Shown here: positions 1 to 53,132 of the stretch, in pieces
How the letters are laid out: each line of letters begins with the position of its first letter
Position numbering within the stretch: the stretch's first letter is position 1
Source of the DNA: Sphagnum compactum
Lineage: Eukaryota
Assembly (NCBI GenBank): GCA_965153455.1
Contig: OZ234493.1
Location: 1,984,001-2,048,000 of the forward strand
Length of the DNA stretch: 64,000 nt
Direction of reading: 5' to 3'
Made by a program: the position numbers and the translations under genes
The notes under the pieces: generated by a model
The model's input: the letters and a program-made list of their open reading frames with translations, nothing else
What the model was told of the DNA's origin: nothing
The model's database searches: none

Positions 1-772
1 TCCTTCCCCCTACCCACCTACAAAGATATGAAAGGACAAACATAACTTTTCATGTTCATGTATTTATTCTGCATGAACATGAAAAGACACAATGTTGAGA
101 ACCATATGGAAATAAACTATTGGGAACCATATGGGAACAGATTAAAAAAAGAGAGAAGATAAGGGTAGAGGGTTGGGAACTTGCTACACATAATAGTAAT
201 AATACAACCCCTCTTGATTCAAAATCAAAAAAAAACTGTTGGAGCCCTTAATTATGAAAGTCCACACCAACCTTCAAAGCAAATAATGTAAGGTAAGGCC
301 CCAAGGTGAGGAGGCCATTCGCCAAATGTGAGGCTTAGGACAAGGCCTTAGGTGTAAGAGGCCTCTTGTAGGCCTAATGGCCCTCTTGTTTTCTAGGAGG
401 TATCTATCATTAATGTTGTATAAGGTGCCTTCCATAATACACTAGAAAATTTCTCAAAAAAGTTGGGGCCATACTCGAATTAAGAAGCCTAAATAAGACA
501 CAACACATATAAGAGGCCTCTAGTTTTTTGAGGAGGCATTTTTTATGTGCCCTCCAAAATACACAAGGAAATTTTTTGTGTCTGGGCAGCTCCAAGATGT
601 ATGTGATCGGCATTTCTTGAAGATTATATTTTTGCATGGTGAAGTATTTGAGTTTCCATAACTCTTCTTTTTTTGCCTTAAGATAAATTTTAATGCAAAT
701 GGCAGGGCCACAGTGTAATTGACACACCCCTTTGTTTAATGTGTATAAGGTATGTTCCAAAAATAAAAAAAG

Positions 773-1203
773 GCAAAATAGTCAACAAAATACACTTAAG
801 AAATCTCTCCAAATACAAAAGGAAATAGTCTACAAAATACACTTAAGAAATCCCTCCAAATACAAAAGGAAATAGTCTACAAAATACACTTAAGAAATCC
901 CTCCAAATACAAAAGGAAATAGTCTACAAAATACACTTAAGAAATCCCTCCAAATACAAAAGGAAATAGTCTACAAAATACACTTAAGAAATCCCTCCAA
1001 ACACAAAAGGAAATAGTCTACAAAATACACTTCAGAAATCCCTCCAAATACAAAAGGAAATAGTCTAAGAAATACACTTGAGAAATCCCTCCAAATACAA
1101 AAGGAAATAGTCTTGGAAAAACACTTAAGAAATTTCTCCAAATACCAAAAGCAAATATTCTAGAAAAAAATACACTTAAGAAACCTCTCCAAATACAAAA
1201 GAT
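773..1203. repeat. 47-bp minisatellite, about 9 tandem units (AAAATACACTTAAGAAATCCCTCCAAATACAAAAGGAAATAGTCTAC)
   Basis: TACACTT recurs at 791, 838, 885, 932, 979, 1026 and 1073, with related motifs near 1120 and 1171. Central units are near-identical, edge units diverged, and there are no spacers. Confidence 0.95.
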
Positions 1204-1594
1204 AGAAATCAAATTTGTAGAGTGCTTTCACTTCTTCATTTCCATCACTTGTTTGCATTTGTTTGTTGTTGGTGCAGCTTTTTTTGTTTTTGGGCAAGCA
1301 ATGAATGAAGTGGAAACAGTAAACTTTGTCCTCTTCTGAATCGTCTCGTGCAAAGCAAAGCTTTAAGCAAACCCTAATTGAGTTGGTAGCTGTAGTTATG
1401 AGGGTGGTGAACTCAAAAGTGGCCACTGTTGCTCATTATGAGCGAGACGGCTGACACACAAGAAAGCAATGCAGTCATCATGTTCAGCAACTGTAGTTAC
1501 CCAGCAGCCAGCCCAGAAGGAGTACACACAAAGGAGAGCGGGAGGAAAGGGGGGGGAAGCCTGGGAGTGTTGTACTCGATCAGCTCCATTATAG

Positions 1595-1600
1595 TATATA
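1595..1600 (+). promoter_or_regulatory. Candidate TATA box of the nsLTP gene
   Basis: TATATA about 175 bp upstream of ATG 1773. A plausible 5'UTR intron AAG|GTCTTT...CTGCAG lies at 1681-1746. Confidence 0.35.
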
Positions 1601-1772
1601 GCAGCACTAGTACATTGCACTCTTCAATCGTCTTCACTGAGCTGCCGCTGCATTCTTTACGTCTTGGGTCTTGTTTGAAGGTCTTTTAAGTGGTTTGTCC
1701 AAGTTTTAAGCTTTGCTTGGATTTGTTTTCTGCTTGGATCCTGCAGAGGTGTTTGTTTGTTTATCGAGTGTG

Positions 1773-2203
1773 ATGGGGAAGCTGTTGCGGATGGGATCTG
1801 TAAGTTCACTTGTAGCTGTGGCTGCAGTTTGCATTGGATTTTTGTTTGTCATGCCTTTGGTGGCTGAAGGCTGCCCAGTTGCTACGTATTACGAGCCTTG
1901 CCTTTCTGCCGCTCTAAACGGGAATGCTAAGCCGGCCCCTGCGTGCTGCAATATCGTTCGTGAAATGGGTCAAACGTACGCCGGCGCAGAGTGCTTGTGT
2001 CAGCAAGCGCATGCACAGACGTTCGGAGCACCGTTCATGAATTCTGTGACCATGCCAGAACGGTGTTTCGGTGCCAATTACCCAAACCCCTCGGGCTACG
2101 TTTGCCGTAAGTCCCTTTTCTATAAGCTGAAAGCACCCTTGTCCGACTTCGCCTTTCAGTAGCTGCTGCTTTTGGATCTGTTGTAAACTGTTTTGCAGCA
2201 TGA
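1773..2203 (+). CDS. Non-specific lipid transfer protein (8-cysteine motif, prolamin superfamily), secreted, about 112 aa
   Basis: The hydrophobic signal peptide MGKLLRMGSVSSLVAVAAVCIGFLFVMPLVAEG is followed by C-X8-C-X14-CC-X14-CLC-X21-C-X12-C. Exon 1 is 1773-2106, the intron is GTAAGT...TTTTGCAG 2107-2198, and exon 2 (2199-2203) gives ...GYVCP-stop. The acceptor choice is inferred. Confidence 0.88.
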
Positions 2204-2968
2204 TGGTTTCCTCGTTGCACGGTTTTGTTTCATGTGCAATGGATCAGTATTTACGTTCTACGCAACTAATGACTTGTGTTCTGGTGTGGGTAACAGACTG
2301 ATCAACCAACTGAGAAGGATTTTGCTCAATGGAGAGGAAAAGAGGTGAATATCCACAACTATATTAGTTTCTCTGCCCCTTGAGACACCTCATTTTCATT
2401 TTTTGTAGTTCCAGCTTGACGACCATCTTATGCATGTCAATCAAATGAGTACAGATATTGCCTGGATATAGCACTTTGCATGGTCGTGGGTATTGCGGCA
2501 TAGGTCAGACTCTTGGCTTAGTTGATCAGCTGAAGCGAGATCAGATCTAGATTGAAATGGTCAGAATGACTGATCTTCGCATCTGTAATAGGCGCACTCC
2601 AGAAATTTGGCTCTAATCCAAAAGCTATTCCAACCATCTAGATATAGATCTGCAGAGCTACCAATGGTTTTCCTGTTCTTGCTCATGATGAATCCTCTGT
2701 AGAAACCGTGCTGTAGAAGTCAGCTATAATATTTCATTGATGTATTACTAGTCTCCCAAGTGCTTTTACCATTTTTTCTTCGACTCTCTGTGGCAGATAA
2801 GAGCAAGGAGCAAATGGGGTTTTCCTCTGCCATCATGTGGCTATTCATCTCAACTCGTCTGCAATATATTCTGCTGTTCCTGAAGAAGAGTAAAGGTTAT
2901 TATTTGTGATAACCTAGATCCAAGTCTCTTTGCAATGACAAAAGAGATAATATTTCCTATAATAAACT

Positions 2969-2972
<4 letters not shown>

Positions 2973-3006
<34 letters not shown>
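2973..3006. repeat. (AT)17 microsatellite
   Basis: Perfect AT run in the sequence. Confidence 0.95.
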
Positions 3007-3008
<2 letters not shown>

Positions 3009-4099
3009 TGTTTCTAGATCCGCTTGATGGCCTTCCAGTTTCCTTGGAAGTATTGGGGATACTGTGTTGGAACTTGGAATATACATGTCCTAAATTTGGA
3101 CCAATTTTCATATTCTATCAGAGCCTAATATGTCCTGAATTTGTGGCAACTTTCATTTTGTTATGTTGCCCTGAATTCATGTGCTATTATCAGTGCTCTG
3201 GATTTTGGATTTAAACAAGGAAATAAAGCCAGGATTAAGATGACACCATCTTGGGACACTGCCACTGCTATTTTCTTTGCTCTTTGCATAATGATTTAAT
3301 ATCATCACAATACCTTCTGAATCAAAACCACGCAGTAATCCAAAAAATACATATATTTAGCAAGCCGAAAGTTTTCAAACAAACTGAATGTTTATTGATG
3401 AGTAACAATTCATTGTCAAAGAGAGTTTGAAGTGGTACAACTCTGGAAACAAACATCGAAGTGCAATACATTACTCTGAATTAAGTACATAAATCTCATA
3501 ATTTTCTAAAATTGCAGAATGAATGTTTTAGAATCTGAAGATGAAAGTCTCCACTGTGGACACTATCAACTCATATTAGTATCAGAGACAGTGTCTTGAG
3601 AACCAATTGATAATTTTACATCATTGGATCTGTTAGCTCAAGAAAGGTAATGGGACATGGTTGAAAATCCTCAAATTTATGTGACCAATTTTGTTAGAAT
3701 TGTGGCCAGATAATGATGGCCACCATTAAATCCCTTTAGCTCCTTTCGCAAATGTTGTTCAATCTTACTTTCATGTACAGCTTTACTTTCTTTGCTTCTC
3801 CAATAGTTACTGTAGAGAGCCGTTAGAGGACAAAATTCTCTTCGATCTACAACTAATGGTAACAAATGCAACGCACTAGAAGATCTCACCTAAAGTGAGA
3901 TTCTTTAGAATGCAATCAAATTAGAAGAGTTTACTAGAGGTAGGCTCTCTAGAAGGCATTCTAATAGTTTGAAATTGAAAATTTAGGTGCCTTACAATAA
4001 AATTGGCACTACAAGTCCCAAAGATACCACGCAAAAATGTTAGGATTCATTTGTAGCAGGCATCAAAGGTAGAGGTTCATTATAACTAGGACTATCAAC

Positions 4100-5335
4100 T
4101 TCTGTATTCACAAGTTCAACAGCACCCTTTCTTCTTGCAATGCCACATCAAAAGTTAACAAATTTATATCATGTAATTCTACTGAAATGATCTCTAACAT
4201 GCATAATCTTGGACCTCTTTGTTGCTTTTACTGTATTTCAACCAAATATGCAAAGAAATGAATCGAAAACGAAATACAAATGTCAAAAATAGATTAAACA
4301 AAAAAACAAATATCATAGCATGTAATTTCATATAAAGTGTAAGAAGAAAGTAAAGTAGTCGTAAGAAGCTTATGACTTTGCATCTCTATGTCCCATAAGT
4401 CATCTCCATGGGCACCAAAATTTCTTTCATTCATGTGATTGTAGTATTCCTCCTTGTGTCATTAGTTATGTTCTTTCATTCAAATTTTGAGAATTACATA
4501 AGAGAAGTGAACTATATACTTTGAATTTTTTTTTATTCCAATAGGAAACTTCATGAACTAGATCCTATCACTTGAATAATAGGTAAACTTCAAAGTAGAA
4601 CAAGGTATAATGGATGAGGGCTGAGTTCATCATCACCAAAGATGGGATGATGGGACATCATCATTTTTGAAGTATTGATAATGGCTTTAAGGAAACAATC
4701 AATTGGTTGTTGGTGATGTGAAGGGACACAATATTTAATATCAATCCAATAGTTCTTGGAGCCACCTTGCTTAAATCAAAATATCTCACTAATGCAAAGT
4801 CTATGAAGATTGAAATTAACATCACTCGTTGTTTGTAACTTAGTGGTTGCTCAAATGATAAAATTTATCACACAAAACCAACTAAATCTCCTGTTCAAAG
4901 CTTGAGAAAGCTTGAGAAGAAGTAGGCTAGTTAGAAACATGATCTAACATCTTCCTCTCTTTTAAGGATGTGACAATTTGTCATTGCTTTTAGCATTCCT
5001 ACCAAGACCAGCTTTCAAGGCTTTATCAATCACTTCATCAACATATTTCATTTTTTTGTGTATTTCTCAAAATGTCAAAAGGTTAAACAAATAATTCATT
5101 AGTTAAAATTTTCTTTCAATTCATGTTCTCCAATTCTACCAATCATTTTGATCATTCCACACACACTACCAAAAGGGTAGAAGCTCCCATCTCTCTTCCT
5201 AACTTGCAAGACAAGTTCATAGAACACATCAACAAGACTTGCCCATTTTTCTTAGACGAATATTTAGTAGAAATGTCAATAACAAACCTCTAAACAACCT
5301 CCAATCTTTATAAACATTTTTTGACCAAATTTTAA
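4100..5335 (-). mobile_element. Degenerate tyrosine-recombinase ORF, Crypton/DUF3504-like transposon fossil
   Basis: Manual minus-strand translation gives, in order: IWSKNVYKDWRLFRG (5330), LVDVFYELVLQVRKRDGSFYPFGSV (about 5236-5162), FDIL, KAGLGRNAK, QALNRRFSWFCVINFII*A (TGA at 4853 where the catalytic Arg is expected), GGSKNY (4766-4749), PLYL, KNITNDTRRNTTIT*M (4475-4428) and GHRDAKS*ASY (4393-4361). Order and spacing match the R-K-HxxR-H-Y catalytic set. Several stops and frameshifts. Confidence 0.72.
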
Positions 5336-7799
5336 ACACCTTGCTCTTGCACTTTCCATCGTAGTTCATGTTGTCAAACTATGTTGCATCGATTAACCAA
5401 AAAAAAAAGGTTAAAAACAATGGCAACATGTCATACAAAAATTTCAAATTCATGAATAATATCTTCATTTATTTCCTCCTTAAAATTGTTAATTGAATTA
5501 TAAATGGTTGACATTAGATTGACAACATTATAGGATGTTGCATCAAAAGGAAGCAATGTACTAGACAACTATGTATTAGCATTATGCATAGGAGCTAGAA
5601 GTGGAGCTCTAATTGTTGGAGACTCTAGAAATAATTACCATGTGAAAGATTGTTGGAATGATTACATGAATAGTTGCATGAGAAATTTCAAAAGGAGTTG
5701 TGTAAGAAGGAACAACAAATGCATGCATAACCACACGAAAAAGTTCAAGATAAGTTACATGAAAATTTTCAAGAAAGATCATGTGATTGAAGAATTGCAA
5801 AAGAAGTTGCATCAACTTAAAAAAATACATTGTGAGAAATTCACAAGTAAAATTATCACAAAAAAAACTGGGGAATGATCTTAGGTAGTTTATCCATAAT
5901 CCATCAAGTTAAAAGGAAGAAAGAACAATTCAAATATATGGAGAAAAGGCTCAATGATCTAAAATCAACCATGAAGAAAAATCAATCATTTAGAAATGAT
6001 CATTAAAAAATGAACAATATAAAAAAACTCAAAGATGTGACCATTTTGGTGGAAGGAGGAACATCTAAAACAAAGAACATCAAAAATGGAATTAAAAAGG
6101 TTTGGGAATTCTTCCCATTCAATTTCACCTTGAAACTTTGCATCAAAAATTTCTATCAACTTTTATTCTACCTTTACACACCTTTTAAATAAATTGATGT
6201 GATCTTGTTCCACATGTTTATTCATGGTTGATATGCAATTAACCTTGTGGTAAACAACCTTTGTGACAACTATTTCATTGCTAACCCGATGCCAACTATT
6301 TCATTGTGACAAACAATCAAATGCATAACTTGATGTTCCCCCAAATCAACATGTTGATTATTTTCACCTTGAAAAATGCCCAAGTGGCCAAAGTTCTATC
6401 ATGAAGTTTCCACAAACTTTTTTTATTTCCTCAAGTCCTCTTAGACTACCTCTTGCATTAGAAGATTTGTAGTGTTGGTGTCAAATGGGGTCTCTTGTTC
6501 TGAAGTGTTCATAAAGCTATAATTGTTACTATATCCAATCAAGCACCCAATAACAATACACATGTTAAATTCAATTTCTGTGCTAACACTATTAGTGTCT
6601 GAAGATGAATTTTCCATGATTAATAGTTGTAGCAAGGGAAGGCCATGAAAGTGCATGGTTGCAAATACGAAAGAATGGCAATTTGAATGTGCAATTGATT
6701 TCAATGAACATGAAGTACAAGCCTATGATGACTTACATTGCATAACAAAGCTTGAACTTCCTACCATGAGGAAAAAAGAAAAAATGGAGTATCACAAGCT
6801 TGAACTCTCTAATACAAGAGGAAAAAAAAACACAACATAAAACAAAAGATATGGAGATTGAGAAAAGGTTTAAGCAATCATCCCCATGTGCCATACTTGA
6901 ATGAAAAATGAATACTCATTGTCAAAAGAAAAGTGGTTGGGGATTGTCATTCTGAAGTCACATTCAAAAGGCTCACAAAATTGTGATGATGCATAGGCTT
7001 TCATTTTTTCCATCACATTGAAATTTCAAACTTGAGAAAATGAAAAACTCTAAACCTATTTCCAAAAACCTTTGATTTTCAAATTCCATATTCACCATTT
7101 TTCATTCAAAAACCATCACAATAATTTTCGTTTTCACATTTTGAGCAAGTCATGTTTCTTACAAATAACTTCCAAAACACAATAAAGTTATCTATAAAGT
7201 ATTCAACATTTGGGCTATTGGGCCCCAATTTTGCTTAAATTGGGGAAGGAATGATAAGTCAAAATGAAACTTTACATAGGAAAAAAAAGACGGGACGAAA
7301 TTAGTTTCCTCACCTAAATTGGTTTGTAATGAATTTCTATTATAGATTAATCACTTGCCTATTAATTATAGTTTGTTGAACTAGTTCAAGTTAATACTTA
7401 CGTACTGCATAGTTAGTTAAGTAACCAGCATTATCACATTTTATTGGAACTTTACATGCATGTTATTTTGAAATATTATATATGTATGTTCAAGCTACAA
7501 TCTTTTAATTTCATTTTAAGTGGTGAGATTACCATTAATCGATGTCAACACGGTATCCAACTTCTTAGTGTTTAAATAAAGTTTTTTTTCTAGTATTATG
7601 AACTTTGTAACATATGTGTAGATTCTTTCTTTATTGTGAACTTTGCTTCATCTAAGGGTTATTGGTAATTAAGTTTGGGCTTTTTAATGTGTCCTCTTTA
7701 CAACATTATGTTTTTTTTCCCTCTTATCTTATCTTGCTCACCAATATGGTGTTAATAAAACCAATTTATGAGGTGAACAAGGTTGTTTAGTGTCATGAA

Positions 7800-10030
7800 C
7801 TATCAACCATGGAAGTTTCAAACCAACTAATTTTCATTAGAACCAAAATTTTAAGATATGTTGATCTAACAATCAACAATTTCACTTAAGGCAAATGAAT
7901 GAGAGGACATAGCTCTTGGAAGAGTGAAAGCTTTAACAATCATTACACTATCTCTTAAAAAGGAAGTTTATATTGTCATTGTAATTACATAGATACTAGA
8001 TAAACATGGTGGCCATTGCAAGAATGCTTTCACAATGCAACCAATTTCATGCTCAAGGATAAGTTGAACACTTTACAAATCGTTGATGGAGTGCATGTGT
8101 CTAAATAGTTTCAATAAATTCAAGAAGTGAAATGTGAACATGTGAGAATTAATTAGGTTGTTTTAAAAATTAAAGTTGTTGAACACATTCTTTTCACACA
8201 AACACCAAGCTTTGAATTAATGTTTCAAAGTATAAATGGTTTATCTTAATTTCCAACTTTTGATTAATTGTTTCTGTGGTTGCTTCAAAAAGTCAAAGTG
8301 AATCACCAATCAAAATCTTAGGCTACTAGTTTGAAGGTTGAAGCTTTGGTAGTGGTCAAGATGTGTAATCTTCTCATGCAAAACCCTTCTTTTGGTGACC
8401 ACCATGACAATTGATCTAGATGCAAAATTGTAAGACCTTGCAATATTTGTGACCTAACAAATTGTATGATGTGACATTGTCACAAACTTGCATGTTAAAT
8501 GGCACATCATATTCAAGAGTGTAACATTTGTTCTTAACCACAATATCGTAAACGTGTTGTGATTAAAAAAATTGAGACATTTAAGCCCAAGTTTTCAATA
8601 GATACCTTTCTATGGATCTATTTGATGTAGTTATTACTAATGTTTTAGAGCTAGAGAAGAACAGAGAATGACTTATTGACTCCAACACTTTTAAGCACGT
8701 GATTGAAAACAAATTTTTTTTGTCGAATTAAACAACTTAAAAGGTTCAATTAGTTTCAAAACAATTGGAGGCCAAAGTCTAGTGGTTAAACGAAAGGGGT
8801 TTGTCAATGTTTCTCCAAATGGTGCAATGAAGATATTTGATGTTATTTATGTGTCTAGGACTCACCAAGAATCTATTGTTTGTTGGTATAATGGTAGAAA
8901 AATGATACATTGCAGTGTTTGATAACACAAAATATTTAATTTTCAATGATTCAAAACACATCATTGGCTAATGGATATGTGACACAAGTGGGTTATGTAC
9001 GTACATTGTGACAAACCCTCCTTTCAAATTTTTGTTGTTGAGGATCCAAAGATGATTACACTTTGGCATTGATGGCTCAGACACTTTGAACAGTCATAGT
9101 ATATGCTTCTCATTTGAATTTTGTGCAACATTAGCATCAAGTATCCTATTGACCCCATGCATTAAAGAAGTTTGCCAAAGCTTCATGCAAGGTAAAAAAC
9201 GTTGGAAAAAAGTTATCAAATCAAAAAGGTGATCCATGCAAGTTTGGGAACTTGTTCATAATGACGTGTAAAATGATAAAGTTGAAGTCTCTTGGGAAGT
9301 CATTATTTTTTTATGATAATGAATGAATGTAGTATGTAAACTTGGGTTTATTTTTTAAATCATAAGTTTCAAACCTTCCATTATTTCAAAATGTTCAAGG
9401 CCCATGTAAAAAACATGTTAAACATAAAACCAAAAGAATTACAAAGTGATAGAAGAGGAGAATATTCATTTGAATGGTTTTATTTTATTTTTTGTTTTTT
9501 GCCAATATCAAGGAATCAAAAGAGAATTCACTCAAGCTTACACCCTTCATCAAAACAGGGTTTCAAAGCATAAGATCCACATTTCCCTTGAAAAGACCAA
9601 ATCTATGGTCTTCAAAGCCAAAACCCTTAGTTACTTTTGGGTAGAGATTGTTTGTACGTCTAATTCCTTCACAAGTTATTCTCTTGCATATACAAACTTA
9701 GCTTGACTACACCATTTAAACATCTCCTAGGCCAAAAATCAAGCATATAACACATTCATGTTTTTGGTTGTATAACATATGTATGCCTTCCCATATTTTA
9801 TTTTTTAAAGAAAGAACCAAAAACTCATAAATGCACTTTGGTAGGATATGATTGGCAAACAAAACAATATAAATGTTTTAATCATGAGAAGAGGTCTATT
9901 GTCAATAATGGGGACGTGAAGTTTGATGAACACCATTTTTGGAAATCCTCAATGGACTCACCTTCAAGACCATCTCGACTCTCCATAGAACCATTGTATG
10001 ATAGTTCAACAACCATCCCAAACTCAAGAT
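7800..10030 (+). mobile_element. Highly degenerate Ty1/copia LTR retrotransposon (gag/protease remnants and integrase; RT and RNase H not seen)
   Basis: Integrase motifs occur in shifting frames: WELVHNDV (about 9245), TWVYFLNHK, FKAHVKNMLNIKPKELQSDRRGEY (9394), GIKREFTQAYTLHQNRVS, SMVFKAKTLSYFWVEIVCTSN, HVFGCITYV and VGYDWQTKQYKCFNHEKRSIVNNGDVKFDE (9841-9930). Gag-like RVKALTIITLS lies at about 7922. Outer boundaries are uncertain. Confidence 0.85.
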
Positions 10031-10990
10031 GAGTCAATTGGGTAACCGTTGATGAACAAGCTAGAACAAAGAAAGAGATAACTTGTAATAGATGGACACC
10101 ATTATTGGAGACCATAGTGAAAACATGCACGTGCAAAGTCATTCAAACCCATCCCCTAAACATAGCTAAGTGATAAAAGAAAACAATCACATGTCTCATT
10201 TTCCAATGCAATTCACTTCAACTAACACATCTAGTTCAATGGACTCACCTTCAAGACCATCTAGACTTGCTTCTTCAGGATTGATCTCGTGGACCTACTT
10301 GTAACACTTTATCAAAGTATGGTTGCTACAAAAGTTGCATTGAGAAGTTCAACTCGCCCCAAAAGTGTTTTCAACCCAACTTGAAGGTCCTTTGTAGCCA
10401 TAATTGAATGCTTTGCAAACATAATAGTAGTGGTGGAAACTCTAGGGAAGCCAACTCATTTCTTTCTCACAAGTTGTCAAAGAGTAGGTGGATATGGTGT
10501 AGCAAGTAGATGATGTCCATTGTCAACAACAAGATCTGGTCATTTCCAGTTGGATGTTCCTTTCATTTTTGTGAAGCGGATTTACAAAATGAAGAGTGGG
10601 CCTAGGTGGAAATGGAATTAGTAGGATGCATCAAATCTCATTCTTCTGCTGAAATGGAGATGATATCGGAGAGTTTAGACGCGTCAAAGCGAGCCAGAGA
10701 CCGTCAGCAGTAGTGGCGATAGTGTGTGTACCTGGTCGACAGTGTGTAAGTTTCCGTCGCTCCCCAACTTTTTATTACTCCAACAAGCGTTGCATTGTAT
10801 TATTTTATGAACCTGTGAGCGTCAGTGTGCATGAAAGGATTTCGCAATAATCTGTCTGCGTATATACGGCTTGGTGACTCTGCAAATAGATTCCAGTTCT
10901 GAACCACACTTTCCAGATCGCAGACCCAAAGGATGAACCCCACCACCCCACCTTCCTTTGTAAGTGTTTAGCAGTAATGTTCCACTCTGG

Positions 10991-11006
10991 TTTAGGGTTT
11001 AGGGTT
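10991..11006 (+). promoter_or_regulatory. Telo-box tandem (TTTAGGGTTTAGGGTT) in the leader of the THO7 pseudogene
   Basis: Two AAACCCTA-type motifs lie downstream of a CpG-rich putative first exon (about 10680-10745, donor GTAAGT at 10746). A site II-like TGGGCC is at about 10597. Confidence 0.45.
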
Positions 11007-11338
11007 CAGCTTGCATGGTCTCTTTGTTCTTAGCTTCTGAAGGTGATGGTCCAAACAGAACCTTATAAGCTTCATTGAAAATTCAAAGAGTCTGAACTGG
11101 TTTGATTGCCCCTTTACAGAAAGAAGTAAGCACAATTGTGATGAGGACCATTAGGGGGTCCAAAGTCCCCAAACTGAACCTAAACCTAGCAAAGTTCTTT
11201 GTGAACTAGAAATTGTTGCTCTGTACAAATCAATCATGCTTTGGACACTTTGTGCAGTGTATCTGGTAGAGAAAGAGAATCATTGATTTAGATTTTTTGT
11301 TGCCCTCAGGCTTTGCACTCACAGCAATCACCACAGCC

Positions 11339-14041
11339 ATGGCTGCATACTATGCCATAAGTCCATTGGAGAATGATGCAGTGATGAGACAACAAGAGGA
11401 GATCCCCCTCTCAAGAAGCTAATCATGAAGTTCATAGCCTTTGCAACAGAGATGGAGAAGGATGGGAACAATTTCAACTATTCGGAGAAGCCTTACAAGT
11501 CATTTCTGCAAGATCTGGCAACTTTTGAGCTCCCACTCCTTAAGACAATGGCCATGATCAATGCAAACAAATGAGAGCAGGAACGCTTCACAAATCTTTC
11601 AAGTGGAACTTAACAACCAAATTTCTCAGGTGAGTGCTATCCTCCCCTTTCCCAATTTGTGGAACTGGGATATTGGAGCCTGTAATTGGATACAATCTAC
11701 ATAATCTGACCAGTTCTTGTTTCTCCAATGGTTCTCATGCAGCTTCACTCTCTACATTTTGGTTTTGAGATATTGAAAGGTGATGGAGAATAGAACACTG
11801 CAGCTGTGTTCTGGAATTTCAGTGTTGATGCTCTTAGGTTTTCAATCTGTGTCATGGGGGATCATCCCTTCATGTTCAGAGCCTTTCGCATTGTGTAGCA
11901 TTCATCTCTGTAGTTGCAGAGCTTTGAGCCTGAGGGTACTAGGAATGAAGAAATGACTGGAAGATGCACCAGTCTGGGCCTTTGGGTTCGCAGCTCTAGG
12001 TTCCAACTTGTTCACTGAAAGAACACCTTTGGACTATTCATAGGTGATCTTTCAGCTGCAGTATGAAGTTTGGAGTGCATGAGATTGTTCAGCAAAGCAC
12101 AAGTGCAATTTTTCAGTTGTCAGCATGCTTTACATTTTGAGATTCCGAATCACAAAATTCAGATTAGTTTGTGATTCACACCTTTTTTTTCCCGTATGGT
12201 TATGGCTGTGGCTACCAGACATTTCTCTCGATGATGATTTTGACTCGTGGCTACCAGACTTTTTTTTGTTTGCTCACTTCAGGTGCACGTTTATCCTGCA
12301 ATTGCGCTTGTTATGGGGTGCTAGCATGTAATGAAGGTAAAATATTGACCAGCCTGCAGATATGTCCCAGATTTTATTCTACCAAACATGCCTCATTTCC
12401 ATGATGGGTATGAGGCCTACAACAGGCACAAAGTGATGTAGAAGGGTTGAAGATGCAGCTTGAAGAGGCAAAGATTGAAAAGCGACACAAAGAAGAGTGT
12501 GAGGCCATCAGAAGATTGATAGCAGCTCAGCCACCTCAGCAGCATCTGAATGATTTTGAGAAAGAAGTTGTTGAATAGGAGCTGAGAATTTTGCAACAAA
12601 CCTCACACTGGAGCTGCACAAGAAGCAATTTGGCCTGCTTCTACATGTGGTAGTGACTTTAGCTTCAGGGGAATGTTTGGCACGGCTAAGGTTCTGAGCA
12701 ATCCTCATACAATGGTATAGGCGTTGGTGGTCAAACTGTATTTAGGGGGGTGGTGAGGTTGGCAAGATGAAGATTGGAGACGGGGAGGGGCAGACTGGTC
12801 GGGAGGGGGCACTGGGCAGCAGGAGAGGGTAGCACGTTTCTTTGCTCAGTACTTCTTTTCATTAGCACTGTTCCTTGATTGGTAGCTGACATTATGACTG
12901 CATCATCCCATTCTCCTAAAAATGTGACAGAAACTGAAGACCCTGATTCTATATAATGATTTGCCCAAAATTTTGGGTGGATGATTATGTACTTGAGCTG
13001 ATGAAGTCAATGGGTAGTAGTCATGGCAGCTCGTCACTGCTGTTCATGATGAAAGTGACAATCCAACACTATGTGAGTGACTCTCATGAGGTTATGACTT
13101 CACTCATTGTTCATACCTTCGATTGTAGTTCTGGAGATTGAACTGTGAAATTTCAATACATATATATGTGTGCGTGACCTGTAGAAATGAAGACTTCAAT
13201 ATGTCACTCGTAACCTGAAGTACAAACTGTGTTGTTAGTTGCTTGAATAAGTACTGGTACAACCCATTTAGTACATCATGTCATTTGTCTTCAACTTGTG
13301 ACTAATGCAGGCACAATGTACACAACATGGGCAAGAGTGAACCAGCCACCCACCAGCACACCATCCACTGGATGCTTGTTATGACTCATTTGTGGATGAA
13401 CCTCAACTGAGTTCATATCTGGTTTCACCTTTGTAACCCAATCTGTCAGAAGTAGGTCCTATAAATAGGTACATAGGTGGAAATGAAAAGGTGGCGGCGT
13501 ATGGTAACGCCCCCCTCTTTATTCCTTCCACTTTTTCCACCATCCTCCCCCCCACTCTCTTTCTTCCATTCCTTTCCATCACTTGTCTCCTTAAAAACCT
13601 CTTCTCTCCTCATCAGAGTGTTTCAATTTCAAGAATTCGAATTAGGTTTCTTTTCATTTCATCTTCTCATACTAACAACCTGCTTGTGGGTTGTTAGCAG
13701 GCAGGCAATAAAAAAAGGCAACTAATCCAACCACCATGATTAGCTAGGGAACTGGAACCCAACAGAAAATTGTTTCCTGACCACTTACCATCCATTGTTC
13801 GCCGTGCTCTGGTTCACTCTAGCCCACAACATGGGGTACCATGAACAATAATTCAACTCTCTCATTTGCACTTTGGATTTGGCCTTTTCCCACTCACTCA
13901 TAGATGAATACTTGGAGGTCACAGGTGGATGAGTTACAGAGTACACTCAACAAGGAGCAGAAAAATCCTGTGGATCTTGATGTGACAGCCTTGGTGGGAG
14001 CTGATGGCAGACCTGCAGAGCTGATGTCTGTTGATACATGA
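11339..14041 (+). pseudogene. THO7: THO complex subunit 7 (THO7/THOC7/Mft1-like) unprocessed pseudogene, 3 coding exons
   Basis: Exon 1 (11339-11629): MAAYYAISPLENDAVMR / TTRGDPPLKKLIMKFIAFATEMEKD...FLQDLATFELPLLKTMAMINANK*EQERF. Exon 2 (12426-12649): [37 protein letters not shown]...LELHKKQFGLLLHV. Exon 3 (13925-14041): VDELQSTLNKEQK...ELMSVDT*. These match plant THO7 as I recall it. GT-AG introns are kept. Lesions: frameshift near 11390, TGA at 11572, +1 near 11598, and TAG plus frameshift near 12576. Confidence 0.9.
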
Positions 14042-15170
14042 TATTTGTTAAGCTCATCCACATTGAAAGGTGCCCAAAAATGCCAATGCCTTCTTTTGGC
14101 ATGAGAGGAATTCTCATTGTGGTCAAAAGGACAGCATGCCCTCTCAAGATGTTTGCAAGAGCAATTGTCAGGTACACTGCCAGGTGTGACTGAGGTTTGA
14201 TTTTAGTTGAACTCACTTAGATATTGTCTCTGATCCTTGTCTACTTTTTGCCTTTACAGATATTTGCACAAGAATCAGATACTTAGATATTGTCTATACT
14301 AGTATTAGTATGGTATCATCACGCTTTTGAGCCTGATCGAGGCATTGGACATTGTTGAGATTTTCATGCAAGCTTGATCCTGGTATTGGGTCCGAGGCCG
14401 ATTTTGGGTATAAAGTATATATAGTATATATTTTACATTGAAATGAATGACACCAGATACTTCACCTCACTCTTGAAAACCAGAAGGAATATTCTAAATT
14501 GCATCTGTCATGAGCCAAGCCCTATTCACGGAGGAAAGACCACATTCTGTTGTAATGATAGAATGGTTAGCCATGGTTAGCATACAAAAATACAAATGAC
14601 ATTGAAGACGTGCAACAATGCAGCCTAGAAATGGGTTATTACTTATCACAAAATCATTAGCAAAAAAATGCATGTCTTGAGGCAAGACATAAGGACAAAA
14701 AAAACTTTTTTTTTTTTTGCTAATGTGACTTTTTTCTTTTTCTTTTTCAAATCAGTCCTTTTATACACAAGCAATGGAAATGAAAATGTTTAAATTCGAG
14801 TTCACATCAAGTTTGAACCAAACCCTTGTTCACACTAAAAGAGTAGCAAACCAAATTTTGACATTTCTCTATGTGCAAGTAACTAGAAACCGAACTTAAT
14901 AGTTATTGCACATATGATTAGCCATGTTTGGCATACAAACGAACACAAATTGCCCCCAATTGGGTAACTTAAGTTCCTTTTAAATAACATAATACAAGAT
15001 ACGATATATTAACATATGAGTTTTTGATAAGATAATTTGTCAGAATATTACACAAAATCTAGCCAAGGTGAGCTTTATACAAATCGCCTATCTATAATTG
15101 ATCTCGTATGGTTCAACCAAGAATTGAGATTTTGGTTAATCTTCTATTGCTTTAACCTATCAATGCTAGC

Positions 15171-31595: not shown

Positions 31596-32653
31596 ACAAG
31601 GGACGGTGTGCAAGCTTAGCTCAATGCTTAATAGCACCAGTCGGTGTGGGGAAAAGTTCAGAGAAACGACTTCTCTGATTTACAAGGTAAGGTTTCTGCT
31701 ATGTAACTTACGTATGCGTCCGTGCTCAAGTAGCTTTGATTTTTTTTACGTTTATTGTGGCTGAGTGTACTCGGTGTTGGAGTGGAAAGTATGTTTTCCG
31801 AGAAGGGTAGGTAGGCTCGTGTGCATTAGTGTGCAGAGTGAAGGTGTCTTGTTCAGCTTTTGCTTATGTTTGATTCTTTTGCTCACGTCTAGATCTTCAT
31901 TTTCTTTTATGAGTCCGTAGAATCCCTGTAACACGCCTGTGGCGAAGCCTGCCGTGAGAAAAAAAACTTGAAGTTGAAGTATTCATTACGTAAAAGTTGG
32001 AAACACATTGTGGAACTTTTCGTTGTCATCTTCTTCAACCTGTTTTTTTGTTGAGAGTAACAACATATCACGCTTGATTACACTGTATTTCGAGCTGCGG
32101 ATGTCGCTTAGTGTTGGGTTTTGAGGATTATTGGCACCAATGCATCAGACTAAAAATGTCTCTATCCATTAGGCTGCTCTGATCACAGTTGTGGCTCTCT
32201 CATTAGAGCAACTTAATAGAAAACCAGTGATACAGGGCTTTGTTTGTATGAACTGGGCACTGCCCATTAGAGAGCTGCAACTGCATTGAAATGATGTATG
32301 TGATCAATATTAGGAACTCCGAGAATTCTTTCTCACTGTGAGATTAGGGGTCCGTTTTTGGTTGCTAAACGGAACCTCGTTCATGAAGCAATGCGTTCTA
32401 CAATGTGTTTGACATGTAATCCATTTTTCACTGCAAGAACTGAGCATAGTTGTGATGGAAAAAAACAATGCTACCAAGGAAAGGGAGTTGAGGAACAAGA
32501 ACATTAAGCTATCTTTGATCGTTTCCAATAATGACTTGAAAATTTATGCTGAAGTATTTGTGAAGTTTGGAGTTGTGCAGTAGGAGGCAGTTGAGCGACT
32601 GTGGCATTCTTACAAGAGATATCAGGGACCAACTTTTCTGTTGGTTTGAAAGC

Positions 32654-35600
32654 ATGGGGTGCAACAATTCTAAAATTCACAGTGATGAGGCAGTGGCGCG
32701 ATGCAAGGCACGGAGGCGCTTTATGAAGCAGGCAGTGGATTCTCGACATGCTTTTGCTGCCTCACATGCTAATTATGTCATAGCTCTCAAAGGTGTCGGC
32801 TCTGCATTAAGGCAATTTGCAGAAGGGGAGGTGAAGGATCCGGCAGCTGCAGGGACACCCTCGGATGCTCCATCCTCTTTTCTTTTGAAGCCTCCACCAC
32901 TCCCACCTATGTCTCTTAATCGTCGATCTTCCTCCCTTTCTTCATCCCCACATCTCCTTCGACATAGGAAAACATCTTCTTCATTTCAATCTCCAGAAAT
33001 TGAAGAAGTCTCATCTGCTCCCCCACCTCTCATCACTCCAATTGGTTATGACGAGGACTGGAAATACTCAATTCAAACTCCTCCATCCCGTCAAGGGCAG
33101 CCTCCTCCCCCTCCACCCATTTCCCAAAGCAGCTGGCGTGACCTATTTTTGGACCCGTTTCGCCCATCCCCAGGACCTTATCAGTACAGTATGAGTACAC
33201 AGGGGGAATCTTCACTTCATGACACTTTTGACACCAATTACCAGCATGGTGAAGAAGACCATGACATACCAGACCTTGAAGATGTGGATACTGATGGACC
33301 TGCTGCAAAGGTAGCTTGTCCCCCAATGTCTCCTTTATGTTTGAAATTGATAATGCACCTGTAAGATCTTATAGAGACCTATACATTGTGTTCTTTCTGC
33401 AGCAAATCAATCATATGGTGATGGATGTGATCAACTGCAACCGCGAGGATGGTGTTTCCTTCATATGTTTTTCAAATTCATTTTGTTCACATGTGATCCC
33501 TGCTGACGATAGTGGTGTTCAGTTTATGCGATTTATTCTGAATTCAGTTGGGTCAATTGTTTACAGTTTACTTTACCCAGGCAAGGTGTGCGAGAATCCT
33601 CTTTGTGGGAAGCATGATGTAGATTGACCTTCCACTATTTTCATGAGGAGTAAAGTAGTGGTGTGAGCCTTGTATATCTCAGGATTCTGATTATTACCAG
33701 AAAGAGGACAATGCAAGAGCCATCACAAAGTTTGAGCAAGAGCCAAGTGCAAGAAAGGAGAATATACTGAAAGGCGCTGTAACAGTAAACCGGGAGCTGG
33801 CCATGGTTATTCAAGAGCAGGGAGGTCGAGACTTGGTTGATGTGCTCAAGGAGGTTGATGAGTTGTTCTTGAAGGCTGCTGACAGTGCTGAAAAAGTTTC
33901 CCGCATACTTGAGACCAAGAAAGTTCATTACCACTCCAGCTTTTCAGAGAGCTTACAAGGTCAGCTTGTATGGACCCTTAGGTGTAGTGGTGACAGCTTA
34001 CCTTTTATGGGTCACTCTATAAGGAAAGTTCACCTTTTCTCTTAACAAGATTTTATTGCTTACAGATTTTCCTGGTTGTTTTGCCATCAGATTTGTTTTT
34101 CTAATCCATGGTGCATAGTTTCTTCTGGAATGAACAGGGGTTGGAGAGTTAGCAAGGATGTCATTCTGGAAGCTGTCTGGACCTTTTGTTCATCAACGGG
34201 CTCCTAGCAACATGAGCATCATAAGTGAAGACTCTGCCAGCATAGGTAGTAGCATGCGAAGCCTTGGTAGCTTCCGCAGTACTGCCTGGGCAGAGGACTG
34301 TGGCATGGCTGGCAGTCTTGTGTCTACTTTTGACAGATTGTATGTGTGGGAAAAGAAGTTATACTTGGAAGTCAAGGTTTGTCTTTCGAAAACTACCATC
34401 TTGCAGCTTCTGAGAGGTGTATTTTTTTGGTCTCATAGTTGCATATATGTGAATTTTGGTTTTCAATTGCGTTTTGAGAAATAAAGATGTCTCTTCTTTC
34501 ATGTTTCTTATGGAGTGCATGGGGCATGTGCAATCAAAGCTGCTGAAGACATTGATTCAGTTCTGTATTTCTCTTAATACAGAACTGTTGCTGGCAGGCT
34601 GAAATCTAACTCTTGTGCTTTATGGTTTCCTTCTTCTGAGAAACAGGGAGCAGAGCATCTTAGAACAGAGCTGGAGAAAAAGTATCAATTGTCCAGAACC
34701 CAGGATGCCAAGGGGGAAGATCAAGTAGGTGTTGAAAAAACACAGGCTAGCATTAAGATGCTGCAGACATCTATGGCGGTTGCGATCCAAGCTGTAGATG
34801 GTGCTGCAATTGAAATTCAGAAGTTGAGGGATGATGAACTCTACCCACAGCTCTTGGATTTACTTGAAGCGTAAGGAAGTTCCTCCTCTTTTTGTTGAAC
34901 TCTCTAGGCTTTTCACCCTAAAGCAAGTACTATTTCATGAAGATCATTTGACTTTGGTATCCTATTCTGTACTTACGATGTGAAATTTCTTTCTTAAACA
35001 GGATGATGATTATGTGGAACGATATGGCCATTACTCACGAAGCCCAAATCAAATCTGTTGAAGCCTTTAAGAGGCTTGGTAATGCAGCTGCCTCTGAGCC
35101 AACAACCAGCTTTCACCGGCACTCTACTGTTGAGCTGGAAACTGCTCTGAACAAGTAAGGTTTCATTTCTCAAGTTACTTACCCTTGGTACACAAAAATC
35201 TCATTCAAAGAGTCATTTTCCATATCACTGAACTTGAGGTTGTTCTCAGTGTCTTCTTTCTAAAATTGTTAGGGCAGGTTTACCTTTGGCATTCTACTGA
35301 TTTTGAATGGTTAATCTAGGTGGACTGTAGGACTGGAGAGAGTGGTGAGCACTCAGAGAGACCTCCTGAAGAACTTGACAGGATGGTTGAGGATAAGCCT
35401 GATGCAGTTCCCTGAGGAGATGGATCGGGCAGGATCATGTTCACCAACCCAATCCTCTGCTCCTGCACTACATAGTGTTGGTGCTAGCCCAATTTATTCT
35501 CTGTGCCAACAATGGCAAGCTTCAATGCATCAGTTACCAGATCGTGTTGCTTTGGAGGGAATAGCTGGGTTTGCAGCAGTAGTTCGTGAGATGTTGAGAC

Positions 35601-36052
35601 TCCAGTGGGAGGAGCTGAAAATCAAGAAACGGGTGGAAACTTTTGCAAGAGAGCTGGAAAAGCGAGAATTCTCTCTATTCAGTACTTCTACAAGAGAATC
35701 ACCTTCACTACCACTACCTACTCATCCTCCTCGGTCTCCAGTGTCCTCGAGCGAAAGTGAGGATCATGAGTATGCTCTGAGCATGACTGTCAGAGAGGGG
35801 CTAACTGAGCGAGCAGACATTGTTGAGCGAAGACAGCGCGTGGAGGCTTCTAAGAGGAAACTTGAAGAGGAACAGGAAGCAGAGAGGAAGGCATATTTGA
35901 ATACTAGGGCCTACACTCTCAACAGCTTACAAACAGGTCTTCCATACCTGTTTCAAGCTGTGTTTAACTTCAGTATTGTTCAAGCTGACATCTATGAGGG
36001 ACTGTATGCCCTTGAAGCCAACAGTAAGATTGCTAGAATCACTGACAAGTGA
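32654..36052 (+). CDS. DUF630/DUF632 family protein (NRG2/APSR1/REL2-like), 6 coding exons, about 760 aa
   Basis: The DUF630 N-terminus MGCNNSKIHSDEAVARCKARRRFMKQAVDSRHAFAASHANYVIALKGVGSALRQFAEGE is followed by a Pro-rich linker. DUF632 motifs include LKEVDELFLKAADSAEKVSRILET, STFDRLYVWEKKLYLEVK, KLRDDELYPQLLDL and LNSLQTGLPYLFQAVFNFS. Exons 32654-33310, 33683-33959, 34138-34376, 34647-34870, 35002-35154 and 35320-36052 are all GT-AG, phase-compatible, and total 2283 nt. Confidence 0.95.
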
Positions 36053-38302: not shown

Positions 38303-39031
38303 CTAGTGGGATAAGTGGACTCTCCAGTGGAAGGAATAGGCAGGTGGGTGGGGTGGACAATTCTCCACTATAGCATAGCCTTTTGCACCACGGAAGTTGC
38401 CAGTTCCACCAAGCACAATGAGCTCATAGGGAGCCACAGCTCCACCCACGTTGCCAGAGAAAGTGAGGCTTCCAGGTCCAAACTGGGAGTCTTCATTGAA
38501 AGTGATTTTGCTCATGAGCTGAAGCCCTTCCTTGAACTTCTCATCAGTGATAGATCCATGGCCTCTCTCTCTCCCAACAAGCTTACTGTCTCTGCTTCCA
38601 CCTTCACGCACATCGTTGTCGAAAACAAACATAGACCCATATCCTGGCAACTTCAGCTCGTGATGCCCAGTGCCTGCGTTCAGCATTACAGTAGTCCCTG
38701 GCCCAATCCGAACTTCATGCACATAAAACTCCAACACTGTCTCTTTGGAAGTATCCGTTTTCTGCTCCAGTGAGACGAAATACTCCTTCAGGTCTGCTCC
38801 TACCCCAGCCATTGCAGACACTTTCTTTCCTGGAGCTGAATCCAGCTGCTGAAGCTTTTTCTTCTGTACTGAACTCAGACTTCGAGAGACTCCGCGACAT
38901 GGTGAACCCAAAAACTCCTTTTGGATACAAGCTCGACTCGGCTTGCTGCTGCTGCCAAGCTGCTGGTTTGGGAATGCAAACGAGCTCTTATGTGCGACAA
39001 GCGTCGTCGTCCCAGCCATGACAGTCGCCAT
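38303..39031 (-). CDS. Dirigent-domain protein with an N-terminal plastid transit peptide-like extension, 242 aa, intronless CDS
   Basis: Dirigent motifs LEFYVHE, YGSMFVFDNDVREG, SKLVGRERG and ELIVLGGTGNFRGAKGYA. ATG is at 39031. A 5'UTR intron is predicted at 39092-39758 (CAG|GTATGA ... TTTCCAG|G), with TATATA at about 39950 on the minus strand. Confidence 0.88.
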   Translation of the reverse strand: MATVMAGTTTLVAHKSSFAFPNQQLGSSSKPSRACIQKEFLGSPCRGVSRSLSSVQKKKLQQLDSAPGKKVSAMAGVGADLKEYFVSLEQKTDTSKETVLEFYVHEVRIGPGTTVMLNAGTGHHELKLPGYGSMFVFDNDVREGGSRDSKLVGRERGHGSITDEKFKEGLQLMSKITFNEDSQFGPGSLTFSGNVGGAVAPYELIVLGGTGNFRGAKGYAIVENCPPHPPAYSFHWRVHLSH

Positions 39032-40676
39032 GAGCTCCGATGCCAACCTCACCAAATGCAAAGAACTCCACAACCAAAACACCCACAATACCTGGAAATC
39101 GAACCATGTACGAATTGGTTAGGATTATATCCTTGGATCTGGTGGAGAGATGAGCTCACAAAACTATAATGGTTCCAAATTCTCTGGACAAAATTCAAAC
39201 AAGCTCTTTCCTGCAGGAGCTCAAGCTGCTCAAAAACCATTATGATCCAAAACTAATTTCCAAACTCAGCTCTTTCCTGCAGGAGCTCAAGCAAATCTGC
39301 TCAAAAGAAGCAACAATATTGAAAAAAAATCTGATCCCACCAACCCAGCAAAGTTCAATACCGAAGAGTTTCGCAAAATCAAAAAGAGTGACAGTGATGA
39401 TGCAAACCAAGAAGCTTCAACATAACCAGTTCAGTAGATCCATCTGTATTGCACCTTGACAGCAAACAGCCATGGAAGCACAGATGCACAAAAGACTGCA
39501 ACCCATTCATAAAAAACTTCACCAAATCTCATGCACTAATCATCAAAACTCCTTCACCAAATCTAATGCACTAATCATCAAAACTGATTCATAAAATCTA
39601 ATGCACCAATCATCAACACTTTGAAGCATATGATATCATGATCTCTAAGGTTCATGAGATAGATATGTACAACACCCAAGAAAACCCATTTGCAAAAAAA
39701 AAAAAAAAACACAGAAAGAAAACTTTTGGTGAAGTAGTAGCAGTAGTAAAACTCATACCTGAGCAACAAGAAGAGCAATTTGAGGCCACTGGGCCTGGCT
39801 AATGAAGCAAAACTCTTTCAAATCACAAAATCTGTTTCACTCTCTACTTGATGTACTTTCTTTTGTGTGTCTGTCTTCAACCAAAAAGAGTGTGAGAAAG
39901 AACAGAAATGAAGAAGAATGGTGATACACTTTTGCACTAAATACATACATATAATACCTTTTCTTATACTTGACACTTTCTACTCCCATTGCTCTAACTC
40001 AGTATCTAGAGATGTATTAGTAGTACCTTGTTGTTGTTTTTTTTTTTTCTTTCACCCCCCCTTTTCTTTTGGGGAGGAAAGCTTTGAAATTTGCACCCAT
40101 TTGCTCAACTACACTAAAGTTAATCACTCGTGATGCACACTTTTTTTGTACCATTTGAAGAATTCCAATGGATAAGATTGACACTTGTATTAGTTATTGG
40201 GAGGAGTGCTCTTGTATCAAGATATGTAAAAAAAACCTTTGCCTCTATGATTTTTTGGCCTTGCCTTGGTAGGCAAGGATATTGTGTTCAGATTCATTAT
40301 AGAGTATACCTAGTAGCTTGAATAATGGATTTTGGCCCCTACTAGGTAATAATAATAGGTCTATTTTTATTATATGAGGATTTTTGAAAGATGATATATT
40401 TTGGCTTGTGTTGAAACTTGAGATTTGTTATAATAGAGTTATAATAGCTTGAAGGATTTTGGTTTCTTTTAGAGGAATTTTTGAAGGTTATAACTTTTGT
40501 ATGGTGAAATATTTGAGTTTCCATAATTCTTCTTTTACCTTAAGATACTTTTAAATGTAAATGGCAAGGCCACAGTGTGTGACAAACCCCTGGTTTACAA
40601 TTGTGGGAGGTAATTTGGGCTCTTTGTGCCTTAACATCTATACCAATATATCAAAGTTATCCATAAAGTCACTCTC

Positions 40677-51690: not shown

Positions 51691-53132
51691 CATTAAAATA
51701 AAATAAATTTTATGACTGTTATTTCCAACAATAAATAAATTTCAATCAACACTTATGATTAAAAATCTATTAATTGAAGTCGCATCTACTGTTTAGTCAC
51801 AAATGATGATTCATCACACTGTTAGTCAATTAACATATATGATTTCATTCGTTGACCATTCATATGCAATTTGCAATTAAACCTTATTTTTGTAATTAAA
51901 ATATAGCCCATTCACATATTGTCACTTGGTGCAATCAAAATTTGTCTTTTGGCATAATTGAAAATTGCCCCATGGCATTTAAACAAATTAAAAATTAGTC
52001 TATGGTGGTAGGTGGGTGGATAAGTAAAAGGTATGTAGGTAAGTAGATAGGTAAATTGATAAATAGGTAGGTAATGTAGGTAAGTATGTTGGTAGACAAG
52101 GAGCAAGTAGGTAAATACATTTTTTAATTTAATTTTATGTTTACTTTTTTGAGTCAAGCCTTTTTATTGGTTCATCCCAAACGACGTTTTAAAAAAATGT
52201 CATTTTTGTGTTTTCAATGCTTCAAATGCACCTTTTTATATAGTCTACAAGATTGAAATGGAGGACAAAATATATGCAATAAGTTTTATAATCAAAACCT
52301 AGTTGTAAATTATATAATTAAATGTGCAAAAAAAAAATTTAATCCCAAATTAAAATTTAATCACCTTAAAAAAAAAACCTACTTACCTTGACCTTACCTA
52401 CCTACCTACTCTAAGCCTATTTTATTAACTATTTACTTACTTAATACAAACATAGTTACCTACATATTTATTTACATACCAATGTATGCACCCAACCTAT
52501 TAACTTACCTTCCTAACTTACTACCTATTAACCTAACTTACTACTTATTAATTAACCTTAATTTATTAATGAAAGTAACTTATGTCACACCTAAATTAGG
52601 CCCACCTAATTATTAACGTATAATTAAATACAATTATTACCTATTAAATATATAGTTAATTACTAATGGGTGCAAATGAAATACAATGAACCAATGGGAT
52701 TACTTTAGAAAAAACATTATATGTTGTTTTGCCCAAAATTAACTTTTTCTACGAATGAATTTTGGAACATTTTTTATGCAATTTGTTATAATAAATGCTT
52801 ATAGTTGTCTTAGTATGTGACATGTTTTTAAGTTTATCATTTTTTAATAAATATGAAAATTTGAGAGTGTGCTAATTCCTTGTAAATCCAATGTTTCATT
52901 TTTTTAAATGGTAACAATTTCAAATCATAACCAAAAATTTAGATTTTTATGTTTTCTTTTATAATAAGCCAAAAATTTTCTTAACACATCATGTTAATTA
53001 TACCCCATTTATATGTGGTAAAGGAATTTTGAAATTAAAAAAAATTGGATCAATTTTGAAAATTTATTTGAAGTTTTAAAGTTTTAAAATTCCACACATT
53101 TTAGGGTATGAGTCCTTTTTGAGTTTTGTTCA

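Follow-up and report, generated by a model that had tools for sequence, protein, structure and literature searches.

A 64-kb window of Sphagnum compactum DNA (contig OZ234493.1) carries on its minus strand, at approximately 4111-5432, what is almost certainly the fossil of a DUF3504-type tyrosine recombinase gene, and the stretch is probably the relic of a Crypton-like DNA transposon. The window is the whole 64,000 nucleotides analysed; it contains 34.7% G+C and no N, and all coordinates given for the fossil are window positions. The gene is spread across three frames of the minus strand, and tblastn alignments carry it a little past the 4100-5335 interval given in an initial annotation of this DNA that was made from the sequence alone. 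The fossil is a very old remnant of a known kind of enzyme in a host group where it was unexpected, and this copy is dead, without detectable present activity.

A single-frame read-through of 4389-5378, with X at each stop, was used as a phmmer query against 1.84 billion representative proteins. This returned 20 matches at E ≤ 1e-3, including four at E ≤ 1e-10. The best long proteins were P0002 (E 2e-16) and P0003 (E 1.6e-14), aligned over ∼210 residues, and the informative matches as a set (P0002, P0003, P0004, P0006 and P0008) were 27-29% identical to the query over up to ∼210 residues. Four short fragments (P0001, P0009, P0012 and P0017) had 66-100% identity over the matched stretch. A profile hidden Markov model built from 15 relatives (A1) was then searched without filters in all six frames of the window, where the fossil was the sole locus matched, colinear over profile positions 32-421; the only further row lay at 53014-53160, with an independent E-value (i-E) of 1.8. 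Similarly, tblastn with all 26 relative proteins gave matches confined to 4392-5432 (minus strand). The initial annotation named the lack of a significant profile match to tyrosine recombinases as grounds for refutation; the A1 profile of the relatives matches the locus with an i-E of 6e-34.

When eight stop-free pieces of the window sequence and three whole frames with X at stops were scanned against Pfam, neither DUF3504 nor an integrase was matched, as might be expected if the resemblance were due to chance or the DNA were a contaminant. This explanation has a negligible probability and can be considered refuted. The E-values of 2e-16 and 1.6e-14 were obtained against the whole protein library, and that of the profile is lower still; the locus sits between plant genes, and five metagenome contigs, as well as contigs from two related species, show it in synteny. 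Decay has gone too far for Pfam to recognise the fossil directly, and since no frame of the window is matched there by a recombinase family, the family assignment rests on its relatives.

The fossil is colinear with proteins of 520-551 aa from the liverwort Riccia sorocarpa. Eight hypothetical proteins of this species were identified (P0003, P0006, P0008, P0015 and P0021-P0024), spread over five chromosome-sized contigs and several of them truncated; one Riccia protein bears the UniRef name ‘DUF3504 domain-containing protein’. Two of the 19 relatives scanned, P0002 and P0003 (30.1 and 31.7 bits), pass the Pfam gathering cut-off for DUF3504 (PF12012, 29.7 bits), while matches at E ≤ 0.01 were obtained for seven of the 19 and for eight of the 17 members of a further alignment (A2). 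Phage_integrase was matched by one relative of 17 (E 0.007). The Pfam match that the initial annotation proposed to look for is thus found in the relatives, but not in the window's own frames. No ALOG, zf-MYM, BTB or reverse transcriptase (RT) domain was detected by Pfam in the 17 relatives, nor any other fused host domain.

An AlphaFold model of the intact relative P0021 was built from a 17-row alignment, with a mean predicted local distance difference test (pLDDT) score of 70.7. Its best structural match in a Foldseek search was the Cre recombinase of phage P1 (E 8.3e-9), across both domains and ∼370 columns, with a template modelling (TM) score of 0.56 on the Cre length and 12-15% sequence identity. 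Further matches included Tn1549 Int, IntI, XerA, XerH and QRICH1 (9hjt_H, E 2.9e-6). P0021, as an intact relative and not the fossil itself, is therefore predicted from this model to adopt the two-domain Cre/integrase fold. In the ESM Atlas, P0021 and P0018 have animal DUF3504, Phage_integrase, QRICH1 and KCTD1 clusters as neighbours (scores 0.97-0.98), which we treat as a lead only.

The relatives retain a full catalytic set (R, K, K/R, H, Y) in order, represented in P0021 by R210, K242, K339, R342, H365 and Y374. This is the order of the residues in Cre, and the spacings of 3, 23 and 9 between K339, R342, H365 and Y374 are those between H289, R292, W315 and Y324 of Cre. The numbers of H289 and Y324 are given in the accessible part of the 2026 paper on the Glomhopper elements (PMC13465315). 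P0021 differs from Cre in being eukaryotic, in its additional disordered N- and C-terminal tails, and in having Lys in place of His289 and His in place of Trp315. By descent, the fossil is a member of the tyrosine recombinase superfamily, although not a functional one.

Every motif quoted in the initial annotation was located on the minus strand in the order that it gave, from WSKNVYKDW (5301-5327) to MGHRDAKS*ASYDY (4355-4396). Its description of a decayed DUF3504-type recombinase gene also held, with the catalytic positions as it had placed them and a TGA aligned with the relatives' first catalytic Arg. Reading along the gene, with all positions on the minus strand, the N-terminal remnant (5286-5432) contains WSKNVYKDW and corresponds to profile positions 32-70 (‘WakkrFqeW’); the profile match itself spans 5286-5402, weak alone (i-E 0.055) and colinear with what follows. 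In tblastn, residues 12-61 of P0022 fall at 5283-5432 and residues 31-73 of P0023 at 5274-5402. Another frame, at 5129-5242, holds part of the N-terminal, core-binding-like domain (profile positions 87-124, i-E 1.5e-5), with 44% identity to P0023 over 36 aa by tblastn; here, VLQVRKRDGSFYP at 5174-5212 pairs with ‘ilqvrkkdgklyp’ of the relatives.

The main body (4401-5087), consisting of the linker and catalytic domain from KAGLGRNAK (4989-5015) to ITNDTRRN, covers profile positions 142-364 with an i-E of 6.1e-34 and 106 bits. The first catalytic Arg position is the TGA stop at 4851-4853, where NFII*A in the window (4848-4865) is aligned with ‘FvIRG’ of the relatives. The codon equivalent to the catalytic Lys (4755-4757) lies in GGSKNYW (4746-4766), which corresponds to ‘SKN’ in the relatives. 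ITNDTRRN (4446-4469) is paired with ‘ITNKSGRG’ and includes the second catalytic Arg (4449-4451), as well as an Asp codon (4458-4460) at the position of the relatives' Lys, which is that of His289 in Cre. The third frame contributes MGHRDAKS*ASYDY, aligned by eye to ‘TGHRDPKSFIKYDQ’; here the His codon is 4388-4390, the position of the Tyr nucleophile is 4361-4363, and a stop falls between them at 4370-4372. The fragment P0017, which comes from a close relative, reads ...NTRR...GHRDAKS in a single frame. At the far end, the C-terminal remnant MLEIISVELHDINLLTFDVALQEERVLLNL (4111-4200) corresponds to ‘iqriisgevedgkrltysevlkee’ at profile positions 392-421, where the relatives read ...QRIISGEV.DG..LTFDEAL; it is colinear, not significant alone (i-E 2.8), and followed directly by a stop at 4108-4110.

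In total, 14 stops interrupt the aligned frames of the fossil, and the reading frame shifts at least three times. The codons for the catalytic Lys, second Arg, His and Tyr are preserved, with Asp replacing the relatives' Lys between them. A search of metagenome contigs with the 61-aa open reading frame (ORF) of the window gave six loci (L001-L006). Five of these, L001-L005, follow the order of the window for up to ∼14 kb, with 86-95% identity, and because of this extended colinearity they are taken to be orthologous loci of close relatives rather than paralogs. The locus is also present in contigs of two related species. The remaining candidate, L006 (47% identity over 30 residues, GC 48.5%), had no profile match at E ≤ 1 and weak tblastn rows, and was dropped as unrelated or undecidable.

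The fossil is broken in all five orthologous loci. L001 has 12 of the 14 stops of the window, L003 and L004 have 10 of 14 each, and L005 has six of the nine that it covers; the TGA at the first catalytic Arg is common to all three orthologs that cover it (L001, L003 and L004), L005 stopping short of this position. Since most of the stops are common to the orthologs, the gene was dead before the related taxa split, and it has drifted further since then. A change of the CGA-to-TGA type is seen at a different Arg position, 4431-4433, which reads TGA in the window and CGA in L005. L003 and L004 are without ∼64 bases of the N-terminal part (RKRDGSFYP...MIGRI; window ∼5130-5193, columns ∼358-421 of alignment A3), a loss that represents additional, independent decay. 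In the contig of organism B (X9), 612 bases are skipped (3704-4315, with the joint at 3703/4316) and the 3′ end of the fossil is gone; this represents either a deletion in organism B or an insertion in the species of the window.

A T-rich extra stretch of ∼124 nt that ends in ...ACAG (4231-4354, minus strand) lies where the relatives have ∼12 residues, and could be either a former intron or a plain insertion. The initial annotation had suggested an intron at about 4232-4360. The terminal AG is present, but a 5′ GT is lacking in the window. All orthologs carry the stretch, and the 5′ GT occurs only in L001, making a former intron plausible but unproven.

With a syntenic locus in several related taxa and a single copy in the window, the fossil might be the pseudogene of a host gene, i.e., a domesticated or cellular DUF3504 recombinase-like gene lost in this lineage, and not the relic of a transposon. 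The possible intron at 4231-4354 and the failure to find the termini of an element would both suit such a gene, and the animal DUF3504 sequences known best are those of domesticated genes, as described in the accessible part of Kojima and Jurka (PMC3212892). These genes (KCTD1, KIAA1958, ZMYM2/3/4, QRICH1 and WOC) belong to the same Pfam family, and QRICH1 is among the fold matches of P0021. However, all orthologs of the fossil are equally broken with most stops in common, such that a working gene at the locus is seen in no lineage. The same source portrays the domesticated animal genes as conserved, fused host genes that have mostly lost the R-H-R-Y tetrad (PMC3212892, accessible part), whereas the Riccia proteins have all of the catalytic residues and are dispersed over five chromosome-sized contigs with truncated members among them, and Pfam detected no fused zf-MYM or BTB domain in the 17 relatives scanned. 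The window copy itself is a pseudogene. On balance, we consider a lost host gene to be an unlikely source of the fossil.

The surroundings of the fossil bear on a second alternative, namely that it was the recombinase module of a DIRS, Ngaro or PAT-like retroelement, or of a larger composite element, the remaining genes of which were deleted or are now decayed beyond recognition. As the initial annotation had stated, no RT or RNase H adjoins the fossil: neither these nor a methylase had a Pfam match on minus 499-9000 or plus 5401-14102, the scan of the plus strand at 1-5400 having covered ORFs of at least 90 aa only. The nearest trace of a retroelement is an SH3-like integrase fragment at ∼9.7-9.95 kb, on the opposite strand. 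None of the 17 relatives has an ALOG match, and the repeat search around the fossil revealed neither inverted nor split direct terminal repeats. DIRS and Ngaro recombinases are reported to be without a DUF3504 match (PMC3212892, accessible part), while the relatives do match. Among plants, DIRS elements are known from green algae only according to the accessible text of a 2022 review of land-plant transposable elements (PMC9033089).

In favour of such a retroelement, Pfam could overlook a decayed RT as it overlooks the fossil, and ALOG/Phage_integrase clusters are found among the ESM Atlas neighbours (0.96-0.97; again a lead only). The accessible part of Iyer and Aravind (PMC3537659) derives the ALOG domain of plants from recombinases of the DIRS1 type, from which it follows that the ancestors of streptophytes met DIRS1-type elements. 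The relatives share with DIRS1 and Ngaro, including ALOG-bearing DIRS1, a eukaryotic tyrosine recombinase with an N-terminal core-binding-type domain. They differ in that no RT, RNase H, methylase, ALOG domain or terminal repeats were found here and in that the relatives match DUF3504. We regard a retroelement origin as quite improbable.

The integrase fragment belongs to a decayed retroelement integrase relic at ∼9200-9950 on the plus strand, the sole retroelement trace nearby, with a match to SH3_retrovirus at 9751-10029 (E 6e-16) and an rve-like stretch upstream that was recognised by eye. Downstream of it, no RT was detected by Pfam, and THOC7-like gene pieces follow at ∼11.4-12.5 kb.

A Crypton-like DNA transposon is the reading that we favour for 4111-5432. 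It would have entered the genome of an ancestor that this plant shares with its close relatives, and its remnant would be the two-domain, DUF3504/CryptonA-like tyrosine recombinase gene, since decaying neutrally. Judging from known tyrosine recombinases and Cryptons, the live element may have been excised as a circle and then reintegrated, with the Tyr nucleophile cleaving and rejoining DNA, aided by Arg-Lys-(His/Lys)-Arg-His. Like known Cryptons, it would have had neither a reverse transcriptase nor terminal inverted repeats.

A number of points weigh against this reading. There is no evidence of mobility at the fossil locus, and the profile search of all six frames revealed no second copy in the 64-kb window. 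In contigs of the two related species, depth on the fossil is about that of its unique flanks (∼40 in X9, ∼25 in X11), although depth cannot be read as a copy number. There is no empty site for comparison, as the fossil is carried by all five orthologous loci and by the contigs of both related species. The initial annotation had proposed that the termini be defined from repeats. This did not succeed, as terminal repeats of the fossil did not exceed chance (matches of 18-35 nt, 64-89% identity, in AT-rich DNA). Regarding the family assignment, the window's own sequence has no Pfam match, identity to the Riccia proteins is merely 25-30%, the DUF3504 scores of the relatives are borderline with Phage_integrase matched in one of 17 only, and the A1 profile had no match at E ≤ 1 among Protein Data Bank sequences. 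The negative result for RT and RNase H near the fossil is weak, given that Pfam may miss a decayed RT in the way it misses the fossil, and an RT may adjoin the intact Riccia genes. The Crypton call of the initial annotation is supported as regards the type of recombinase gene, transposon status being no more than probable, with one copy in 64 kb, no termini and no empty site. With no second copy, ends or empty site found, a Crypton transposon is the best reading yet unproven.

Sequencing reads add little on either copy number or expression. From ∼2/100 of a run of raw DNA reads, 115 fell on 6 kb, which is too sparse for an estimate of copy number. No credible transcripts were found on the fossil in one polyA RNA run, of which ∼12/100 was examined; the 39 reads on the 6-kb stretch were all <90% alike and all only partly on the stretch, and those at 4201-4400 extend into a simple repeat. 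RNA reads <90% alike also pile up at 7201-7400. Five other RNA runs, labelled as moss or plant metagenome, contain a fraction of 0.05 of the sequence words, from which no conclusion on habitat or host is drawn. This interval and 6001-6400 are short multi-copy repeats, with a summed contig depth of 100-226 in the two related species compared to ∼25-40 in the flanks.

The gene content of the window indicates that the host is a land plant, in line with the initial annotation. In addition to the THOC7-like pieces, it includes a multi-exon DUF630/DUF632 gene at 32564-36049 (plus strand), a Dirigent-family ORF at 38306-39118 (minus strand) and an LTP-like ORF at 1.7-2.2 kb, all of which belong to families that are land-plant markers. 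Other features towards this end of the window are a tandem array at 776-1201 (47-bp unit, nine copies, 92% matches), which the orthologous metagenome loci have as well, and an (AT)17 microsatellite at 2973-3006, which was passed over as a repeat in the read alignment.

Cryptons are reportedly present in the green alga Chlamydomonas, and to our knowledge the Glomhoppers of arbuscular-mycorrhizal fungi are the only described non-animal DUF3504 elements. According to the accessible part of Kojima and Jurka (PMC3212892), DUF3504 derives from the CryptonA recombinase. The Glomhopper paper calls the domain ‘widespread in Opisthokonta’ and reports DUF3504 elements in animals and Glomeromycota, with plant copies unmentioned in its accessible part (PMC13465315). 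The word ‘Crypton’ is likewise absent from the accessible text of the 2022 review, which excludes DIRS from land plants (PMC9033089), and the accessible part of the Riccia genome paper mentions neither Crypton, DIRS nor recombinase (PMC11735767). The initial annotation had considered such elements to be uncharacterised in land plants, and no literature describing them there was found by title or abstract, Repbase and subscription journals lying outside the search.

The plant sequences resemble CryptonA of animals and the Glomhoppers in several respects. The relatives match DUF3504, and the P0021 model predicts a Cre-like two-domain fold; the recombinase is the sole recognisable domain, with no RT nearby. 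The full catalytic set of the relatives is as in Glomhoppers and some animal Cryptons, and introns, to which the possible intron of the fossil may be likened, are reported for Glomhoppers (PMC13465315, accessible part). The absence of terminal repeats agrees with what is reported for animal Cryptons in the accessible part of PMC3212892. The differences are that the host is a land plant, with the nearest intact relatives coming from a liverwort, that the Pfam scores of the relatives are borderline and identity is low, and that Lys occupies the position of His289 in Cre.

The dispersal of the Riccia relatives over five contigs, some of them truncated, looks like the spread of a transposon. We tentatively propose, as somewhat short of probable, a bryophyte lineage of DUF3504-type (CryptonA-like) transposons, present now or until recently, that would be catalytically intact and dispersed in Riccia sorocarpa and preserved as an ancient fossil here. 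Such a lineage may have been inherited from far back among the streptophytes; alternatively, horizontal transfer could have brought it in from animals or from the arbuscular-mycorrhizal fungi that colonise bryophyte thalli. Transfer between bryophytes and either animals or mycorrhizal fungi thereby becomes a question open to testing, and the Riccia sorocarpa genes provide a concrete set for mobility testing.

If true, land plants would gain their first family of tyrosine-recombinase transposons. The finding also links to the origin of the plant ALOG transcription factors, derived from a recombinase DNA-binding domain according to the accessible part of Iyer and Aravind (PMC3537659). The copy in the window is itself functionless, and its value is that of a dated marker, placing the family in the lineage before the related taxa diverged. 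The uncharacterised liverwort relatives hint at a kind of mobile element undescribed for land plants, and the fossil together with intact, catalytically complete paralogs on five Riccia chromosomes would extend tyrosine-recombinase elements to the embryophytes.

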